A stretch of 64,000 nucleotides of DNA, from positions 4,528-68,527 of the forward strand of contig JADFCW010000002.1 of the NCBI GenBank assembly GCA_017161705.1. Direction: 5' to 3'. This document shows positions 14,365 through 14,599 of this stretch, piece after piece. The stretch is from Candidatus Sumerlaeota bacterium. Its GTDB lineage: Bacteria; Sumerlaeota; Sumerlaeia; JADFCW01. The position numbers and the translations under genes are program-made. The stretch's first letter is position 1; each line of letters begins with the position of its first letter. The notes beneath the pieces were generated by a model. It was not told where the DNA came from. It did not search any database and saw only the letters and a list, made by a program, of their open reading frames with translations.

Positions 14365-14407
14365 ACCCTTCAGCGTCCGTTTGTAGTTCACGCTTCAGCG
14401 CGGTTTA
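14365..14407 (+). repeat. Partial forward copy of the GTAGTTCA/CTTCAG repeat unit in the queA-tgt spacer
   Basis: CCCTTCAGCGTCCGTTTGTAGTTCACGCTTCAGCGCGGTTTAT matches the unit of the 53520-53694 array. Confidence 0.6.
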
Positions 14408-14502
14408 TTCGCCGCGACACAGCGATCGAAAGAAGGGTTTTCATCTCCCTCAATCGCGATGCGGGAAACCGCCCCGCTGGCTTTCTGAAAAACGCAGCAC
14501 AC

Positions 14503-14599
14503 GAAAGTGTGAACGACATGCAACCCAGTGAAGATTGAATTACCAACAGCACACTAAAGTGTGAACTACAAACGGCAAACTGAAGTTTGAACTACGAGC
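14503..14599 (-). repeat. Inverted copies (about 2 units) of the GTAGTTCA/CTTCAG repeat
   Basis: The reverse complement reads GCTCGTAGTTCAAACTTCAGTTTGCCGTTTGTAGTTCACACTTTAGTGTG..., nearly identical to the tandem unit at 53570-53673. Confidence 0.65.

Follow-up and report, generated by a model that had tools for sequence, protein, structure and literature searches.

A probable cluster of GTAG-type REP units in the queA-tgt spacer of a Candidatus Sumerlaeota bacterium

The closest described relatives of the repeats considered here are the GTAG-tagged REP families of Di Nocera et al. (2013; PMC3733652), in which a terminal unpaired GTAG precedes a short stem-loop and which form HH, TT and HT dimers in extragenic DNA; the head-head form is the commonest, with its partners 20-100 bp apart, and HT dimers are reported as rare in most families. 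Members of the GTAG-1 and GTAG-2 families have an unpaired dinucleotide after the GTAG, and the units of Thauera sp. MZ1T, which were discovered as tandem repeats, have stems of 5 bp (PMC3733652). Long head-to-tail arrays are described as rare for most REP families (PMC3733652). The REP and BIME elements of E. coli form clusters in intergenic and intercistronic DNA, operons included, give rise to hairpins in mRNA, and are tied to a single RAYT (TnpA-REP). In REPtrons, an HUH/Y1 gene of the RAYT type is flanked by inverted cognate REPs (Nunvar 2010, PMC2817692; Ton-Hoang 2012; Corneloup 2021, PMC8266576). REPINs, regarded as non-autonomous and RAYT-dependent, are inverted REP pairs capable of forming a long hairpin and are copied whole, as a doublet with a short conserved spacer (Bertels & Rainey 2011, PMC3116915). 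MITEs, too, are small non-coding intergenic insertions with inverted ends that can fold as RNA. Each of these systems has something in common with the gap between queA and tgt described below, and each differs from it in at least one respect.

In the window (the whole stretch of DNA that was analysed, 64 kb), queA, encoding S-adenosylmethionine:tRNA ribosyltransferase-isomerase (14621-15763; Pfam Queuosine_synth, 4e-122), and tgt, encoding queuine tRNA-ribosyltransferase (13189-14319; Pfam TGT, 2.8e-158), both lie on the minus strand according to Pfam and the ORF list; a preliminary description of this DNA had already placed them on one strand. The start of queA was taken as that of its longest ORF and its TAG stop codon occupies 14621-14623; tgt starts with the ATG at 14319, its 376-aa translation being matched exactly by a protein (P0121) of a public protein collection. 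The intercistronic spacer therefore runs from 14320 to 14620, again read on the minus strand, and its measured 301 bp agree with the earlier figure of about 300. Just downstream of tgt, two long ORFs overlap on opposite strands: that on the minus strand (12107-12850) is assigned by Pfam to the class I SAM methyltransferases, and that on the plus strand (12356-13186), chosen by a crude GC3-based gene caller, also has a high GC3. Probably only one of them is a real gene.

Scoring against the family consensus resolved the unit boundaries within the spacer. Four 26-nt units lie head to tail on the minus strand (14492-14595) and two more, inverted relative to these, lie on the plus strand (14357-14408); a unique core of 83 nt (14409-14491) separates the two groups. 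From the queA side, unit u1 (14570-14595; GTAGTTCAAACTTCAGTTTGCCGTTT) starts 25 nt past the queA stop and matches the consensus at 25 of 26 positions; u2 (14544-14569; GTAGTTCACACTTTAGTGTGCTGTTG) has the stem CACAC/GTGTG, a compensatory variant; u3 (14518-14543; GTAATTCAATCTTCACTGGGTTGCAT) is degenerate in both head and stem; and u4 (14492-14517; GTCGTTCACACTTTCGTGTGCTGCGT) combines a degenerate head with an intact stem. On the plus strand, i2 (14383-14408; GTAGTTCACGCTTCAGCGCGGTTTAT) is accompanied, in 26-nt register and as a direct repeat, by the degenerate i1 (14357-14382; TATGGTTTACCCTTCAGCGTCCGTTT). The preliminary description had correctly recognised a repeat, and an inverted pair of its copies around a core; its inventory of one partial forward unit and about two inverted ones is to be replaced by two on the plus strand and four on the minus, and its 95-bp core by one of 83 nt.

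The pattern is also seen when no consensus is imposed: a repeat search of the window found direct periodicity of 26 nt at 14495-14595, and the best inverted repeat pairs 14377-14398 with 14554-14575 (both in plus-strand coordinates; 22 nt, 91% complementary). The sequence GTAGTTCANNCTTCAG, with up to two mismatches allowed, has 11 occurrences in the window, where 0.11 would be expected by chance, a count equalled by none of 100 shuffles. Three of the six spacer units have the head GTAG, the remainder GTAA, GTCG and one decayed form. The GTAG ends point outward, towards higher coordinates for the minus-strand units and lower coordinates for the plus-strand units. The spacer thus holds two opposed groups with GTAG on the outside and 83 nt between them, the head-head layout as defined for REP dimers at 20-100 bp (PMC3733652). 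The units abut at the 26-nt period, with no spacers, which rules out a CRISPR array.

The consensus of the unit is GTAG-TT-C-A-A-R-C-TTYA-G-Y-T-T-G-CNGTAY, also written GTAG-TT-CAAGCTTTAGCTTG or GTAGTTCA. Its 26 nt comprise an unpaired GTAG head, a TT dinucleotide, a 5-bp stem in which positions 7-11 pair with 16-20, a 4-nt TTYA loop and a short tail. Among distinct units, conservation of positions 1-4 reaches 90% or more, although units were selected with those positions taken into account. Counted over 477 units, drawn from the window and from related loci, pair 10-17 is GC in 248, AT in 105 and CG in 40, and pair 9-18 is AT in 419, GC in 37 and CG in 6. When only the 60 distinct units were considered, 88.7% of stem cells were paired, compared with 14-33% when the partner was slid; 27 changes were double-sided, and the covariation score was reached in 0 of 500 shuffles. 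This is, then, a short unit, within the 20-40 bp range, whose stem-loop is preserved by complementary changes, and the sub-types that alternate in the window (CAAAC...GTTTG and CACGC...GCGTG) represent a single hairpin with compensatory changes. Mismatches in the stem, 22 G:T against 49 A:C, give no sign of the wobble pairing specific to an RNA strand, and lone units make weak hairpins (-2 to -8 kcal/mol).

In their terminal unpaired GTAG, the dinucleotide before the stem, the short stem-loop, the existence of compensatory sub-families, their extragenic, clustered distribution and the head-head pairing at 20-100 bp, these units resemble the GTAG-tagged REP families, and in their 5-bp stems and tandem occurrence they resemble the elements of Thauera sp. 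MZ1T. They share with the REPs of E. coli the clustering between genes, including genes of an operon, and the capacity to form hairpins in mRNA; E. coli stems, in contrast, are longer, bulged and GC-rich, orientation there alternates within BIMEs, and it is for the E. coli elements that interaction with IHF, gyrase or Pol I and stabilisation of mRNA have been shown. Neither the 16-mers of the unit nor the stem-loop CAAGC-TTYA-GCTTG occurs in the searchable text of the literature (figures lie outside such a search): the queA-tgt cluster is of a known REP kind, and its unit sequence is absent from that literature.

Three other sites of the family lie in the window, all intergenic. The second site (53518-53699, plus strand), between two plus-strand genes, consists of seven head-to-tail units with a super-period of 52 nt (97% matches), and each of its six full units (53544-53699) starts with GTAG. 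Identity between 52-nt repeats is 97% here and 77% in the queA-tgt spacer, whose units are the more decayed. The neighbours of this much fresher array are a GH120-like gene and a sulfatase gene, and 72 nt downstream of it is a weak inverted unit (53772-53797; GGAG head, 20/26) that would repeat the head-head layout. At the third site (19599-19649, plus strand), two degenerate units are flanked by genes of the sulfatase and Laminin_G_3 types; the fourth (50372-50430, plus strand), also of degenerate units, is between two minus-strand genes and upstream of a PMT_2-like gene.

The exact two-unit pattern was then sought across 185,579 species-representative genomes. It was found at 57 loci, nearly all of them in two Lentisphaerae MAGs, the remaining ones being in one Verrucomicrobia bin, one Sumerlaeia MAG and Candidatus Venteria ishoeyi. 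With four intergenic sites in the 64-kb window and 57 loci in other genomes, the units are numerous, dispersed and extragenic. Comparison of the window with the 57 repeat-bearing loci by BLAST returned the repeats as the sole matches, and protein comparison of the same set yielded no orthologues; the genome of the window is thus not one of those in which the pattern was found. Arrays at the related loci run in one direction, comprise 2 to 42 units and are all intergenic, with none inside genes; truly inverted arrangements are rare in these genomes. This dominance of head-to-tail arrays, up to about 40 units long, sets the related MAGs apart from the GTAG-tagged families, in most of which HT dimers are reported as rare.

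The genes around these arrays, as delimited by crude GC3-based calls on which the following counts rest, are convergent for 22 arrays, divergent for 8 and co-directional for the others, 10 with the array in sense and 11 in antisense orientation. Convergent regions are enriched for arrays. The absence of bias towards one transcript strand speaks against an RNA that functions in sense orientation only, and in favour of an element that operates as DNA and settles at the least harmful places. The only recurrent neighbours belong to large PVC paralogue families, DUF1559/N_methyl and DUF4838; no transposase is among them. These data bear on the proposal that the arrays are functional modules—a sponge RNA, say, or an array of sites for a DNA-binding protein—of which the queA-tgt copy would be one working instance. 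The hairpin is indeed regular, periodic and covarying, arrays can exceed 40 units, and some persist at orthologous positions in two species; set against this, the arrays show no orientation bias relative to neighbouring genes, the neighbours that recur are just the DUF1559 and DUF4838 paralogues, there is no Rfam match, and in other phyla this hairpin is found specifically at the sides of RAYT genes, as described below. We regard such a module as very improbable.

Orthologous intergenic sites in the two Lentisphaerae MAGs, where the flanking proteins are 93-95% identical, differ in the number of units they hold: two (L012:2644-2727) against three (L026:2134-2246) in one case, and about three (L054:1458-1651) against at least 14 (L005:3794-4305) in another. 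Because unit numbers differ at orthologous sites, the arrays must expand and contract in place; in these MAGs they behave as variable-number tandem repeats. A second unit, of 21 nt (GTACCTCGCTTGCAGGAGCAT), is interleaved in L005 and L054.

A link to RAYT genes is provided by Ca. Venteria. An ORF at L029:5172-5801 scores 83.6 bits to the NCBIfam model NF047646, 'REP-associated tyrosine transposase' (REP_Tyr_transpos; cut-off 80), and carries both an HUH motif (LPNHYH) and a catalytic-tyrosine motif (LNYIHHN). On both of its flanks are GTAGTTCAAGCTTYAGCTTG units with the same 26-nt period (locus L029:4981-5880). This RAYT belongs to a clade of more than 1200 homologues of about 199 aa, and the flanks of two of these homologues carry GGAG- or AGAG-TTCAAGCTTYAGCTTG. 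Tight, REPIN-like doublets are present beside RAYT genes at L058 and at the Venteria locus.

We surveyed the flanks of 80 metagenomic members of the clade for the core TTCAARCTTYAGYTTG, allowing up to two mismatches and a distance of 400 bp. The core was found near the RAYT gene at 55 of the 80 loci and on both sides of it at 47 of the 67 for which both flanks were present, and its density was 2.74 per kb in RAYT flanks as against 0.055 per kb elsewhere. Orientation is equally ordered: upstream units are on the plus strand in 67 cases and on the minus in 15, downstream units on the minus strand in 63 and on the plus in 11. This is the organisation of REPtrons, an HUH/Y1 gene between inverted cognate REPs, and it is found both in Venteria and at those 55 of 80 loci. 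The heads of the metagenomic RAYT-flanking units are mostly AGAG. Among the clade loci (L029, L058, L060, L067-L146), one hairpin, TTCAAGCTTYAGCTTG, recurs in distant phyla while the 4-nt head varies: most soil metagenome loci have AGAG and some have GGAG, with GTAG in Venteria and PVC-like genomes.

Because the same hairpin flanks the RAYT genes of this clade, that of the window is, to judge from sequence, the clade's cognate REP, bearing a lineage-specific head; from the Venteria flanks and the 55 of 80 metagenomic flanks, the unit would be a GTAG-type REP and the queA-tgt spacer a BIME-like head-head cluster. The correspondence with REPtrons is incomplete in two respects: clade heads vary between AGAG, GGAG and GTAG, and a cognate RAYT flanked by such a REP is seen in Venteria and the metagenomic loci, with none in the 64-kb window or beside the arrays of the other 56 related loci. 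With the Venteria RAYT as query (E. coli RayT and IS200 TnpA served as leads only), the window and the Lentisphaerae, Verrucomicrobia and Sumerlaeia loci gave no match. Twenty RAYTs compared by tblastn with the spacer and with the 64-kb window gave only noise, so the core of the spacer is not a decayed RAYT.

Comparison with orthologous queA-tgt junctions, which the preliminary description had recommended, speaks for an insertion. The closest relatives of this Tgt are only 71-77% identical, the nearest named one being from Candidatus Sumerlaeota, and three of them retain queA beside tgt. Their spacers measure 121 bp (L064), at most 133 bp (L147, which shares with the window the divergent beta-CASP gene as well) and 37 bp (L148), and all three are devoid of the unit; in the other relatives, tgt is preceded by unrelated genes. 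The window spacer shows no homology to that of L064 when the two are aligned. Removal of the six units from the window spacer leaves about 145 bp, within the range of the relatives' spacers. Since three orthologous junctions lack units and the remainder matches the relatives in length, the REP cluster is best read as a lineage-specific gain in this spacer.

Other small repeats are found at these junctions. A different inverted-repeat element lies upstream of tgt at L062:3643-4000 and L066:80-374, consisting of TTTAGAGGCTCTAAA, a CGCAGAG-rich segment and TTTTAGAGCCTCT. L147, the closest syntenic relative, has short tandem motifs of other kinds in both of its spacers (1431-1793 and 2868-3000): the one between queA and tgt contains four that are GTGGACGA-like, and the one between the beta-CASP gene and queA contains GTACTTCGTACTTTGCTCTTT-like repeats that have an inverted partner; its annotated tgt start looks about 50 nt too far downstream. 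The region upstream of tgt seems to gather unrelated small repeats in several lineages.

What was gained could in principle have been one composite element, the whole of 14357-14595 with its arms and core having transposed as a unit, in the manner of a MITE or a REPIN. The 22-nt inverted arms (91%) around a short core would suit this, REPINs are inverted REP doublets (PMC3116915, PMC3337134), and REPIN-like doublets do accompany RAYT genes at L058 and the Venteria locus. The core, however, is particular to this site. A search of the window and of related loci L001-L057 with 14409-14494 disclosed no second copy; 14409-14491 has neither an Rfam match nor a RAYT remnant; and consensus scoring, together with the copy search, indicates that it is not REP-derived. 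The arms, moreover, are unequal, with four units against two, the other sites are mostly one-directional arrays, and no target-site duplication is visible at the borders. A REPIN would have a short conserved spacer repeated along with its doublet, instead of 83 nt of unique DNA between unequal multi-unit arms; a MITE would have the terminal inverted repeats of a parent IS, a target-site duplication and a second copy of the whole element, and has in common with the spacer its small, non-coding, intergenic, RNA-foldable nature and its inverted ends. We therefore consider a composite element extremely unlikely: the unique core implies two REP groups around resident DNA. The 'MITE-like insertion' of the preliminary description nonetheless came closest among the three possibilities it offered, for an insertion of a non-autonomous, genome-wide REP family accords with the unit-free junctions of three relatives; its strict MITE part fails, on account of the unique core and of arms that are multi-copy REP units and not terminal inverted repeats.

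The rarity of inverted arrangements in related genomes, where arrays are almost exclusively one-directional, raises the question of how a head-head pair arose here. A partial inversion, or illegitimate recombination, inside an array that once ran in one direction could have produced it, and a recombination scar was another of the possibilities offered earlier. Against it, the 83-nt core is not REP-derived; nor is an inversion needed, since in other families REP dimers are most often of the head-head type, with 20-100 bp between partners (PMC3733652); and no sign of rearrangement is seen in the flanking genes, the synteny of beta-CASP, queA and tgt being retained in L147. The idea found no specific support and we hold it to be highly doubtful.

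The third possibility, a large regulatory hairpin in the tgt leader, concerns what the inserted cluster might do. Folding of the transcript, another check recommended earlier, predicted a strong structure: the two-unit inverted arms form an imperfect duplex of about 45 bp at -51 kcal/mol, with pair probabilities of about 1 in the 301-nt transcript, and the whole spacer folds better than shuffles on both strands (z = -4.3 and -4.6). If transcribed, the duplex could serve as a substrate for an RNase that acts on double strands, or as an obstacle to 3' exonucleases. Scanning of 14150-14800 revealed no promoter-like site and one weak terminator-like site, formed by the 5-bp stem of u4 and TTTTT, against 0.8 expected in shuffles, which is chance level; an intrinsic terminator or attenuator in the tgt leader is thus set aside. 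So is a known structured RNA: Rfam models, that of the preQ1 riboswitch included, gave no match in the whole window at gathering score, and the spacer at E<=10 gave only a chance-level snoRNA match (E = 9.1).

From a REP origin, with which it is compatible, the cluster might subsequently have been exapted: the inverted groups would have been retained because their duplex uncouples queA from tgt, whether by RNase III-type cleavage, as a barrier to 3' exonucleases that stabilises queA mRNA, or as a partial terminator; the mRNA for tgt would then be a processed product or a transcript of its own. Arguing for this are the stability of the predicted duplex and the fold scores just given, the way in which an inverted arrangement stands out in a family where it is rare, and the precedent of E. 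coli, where REPs have an established influence on transcript stability and termination (work cited in PMC2817692 and PMC3733652). Arguing in the other direction are the chance-level terminator, the lack of a promoter-like site and of an Rfam match in the searches above, the three orthologous junctions that manage without the structure, the decay of the spacer units (77% against 97%), as neutral drift predicts, and the absence in the family of strand bias relative to transcription. The hairpin proposed in the preliminary description is hence physically plausible, its energy being -51 kcal/mol, but its specificity to this locus finds no support, because the same units occur in intergenic regions of every sort and show no preference for either strand. 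We judge exaptation unlikely, and any effect of the duplex on tgt expression, or other consequence for queA-tgt mRNA, would be a prediction from the fold.

Our preferred reading, to which we would assign a probability of roughly 0.8, is that the queA-tgt spacer holds a cluster of GTAG-type REPs in BIME-like head-head arrangement, seeded by a RAYT and tolerated after insertion. By analogy with the characterised RAYT/REP pairs (PMC2817692, PMC3479197, PMC8266576), a RAYT of the HUH/Y1 family would bind and cut single-stranded DNA hairpins bearing the 5' tetranucleotide, and would seed units into intergenic DNA, presumably including the queA-tgt site. Arrays so seeded would grow and shrink locally through tandem duplication of one or two units, a step supported by the 52-nt super-period and by the differences in unit number at orthologous sites; the 52-nt periodicity suggests that duplication often proceeds in two-unit steps. 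In the lineage of the window, the cluster would have entered a queA-tgt spacer that was originally short, and been tolerated there. Several observations weigh against this reading: apart from the Venteria locus, neither the 64-kb window nor the related loci contain a RAYT gene, so that a cognate transposase in this organism is presumed; a stem of 5 bp is on the short side for a REP; long head-to-tail arrays are described as rare for most REP families (PMC3733652); and most metagenomic RAYT-flanking heads are AGAG or GGAG, not GTAG.

A bolder scheme can be drawn from the same data. It supposes a cross-phylum RAYT/REP lineage in which the hairpin TTCAAGCTTYAGCTTG stays near-unchanged while the head switches between AGAG, GGAG and GTAG; a PVC-like branch in which head-to-tail arrays of up to about 40 units have become independent of RAYT; and, at queA-tgt, an inverted pair retained as an RNA duplex that separates the expression of the two queuosine genes. 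The hosts of this lineage may span Acidobacteria-like soil bacteria, a gammaproteobacterium and PVC-like bacteria. Taken as a whole, we think this scheme a long shot.

On the preferred reading, an ordinary REP insertion accounts for the 301 bp that oddly separate two genes usually found close together, which warns against assuming regulation from such a gap. The clade of more than 1200 RAYTs, with its constant hairpin and varying heads, offers a possible natural series for testing how the cleavage site is chosen. And in the related MAGs, REP arrays act like variable-number tandem repeats and form head-to-tail arrays of unusual length.
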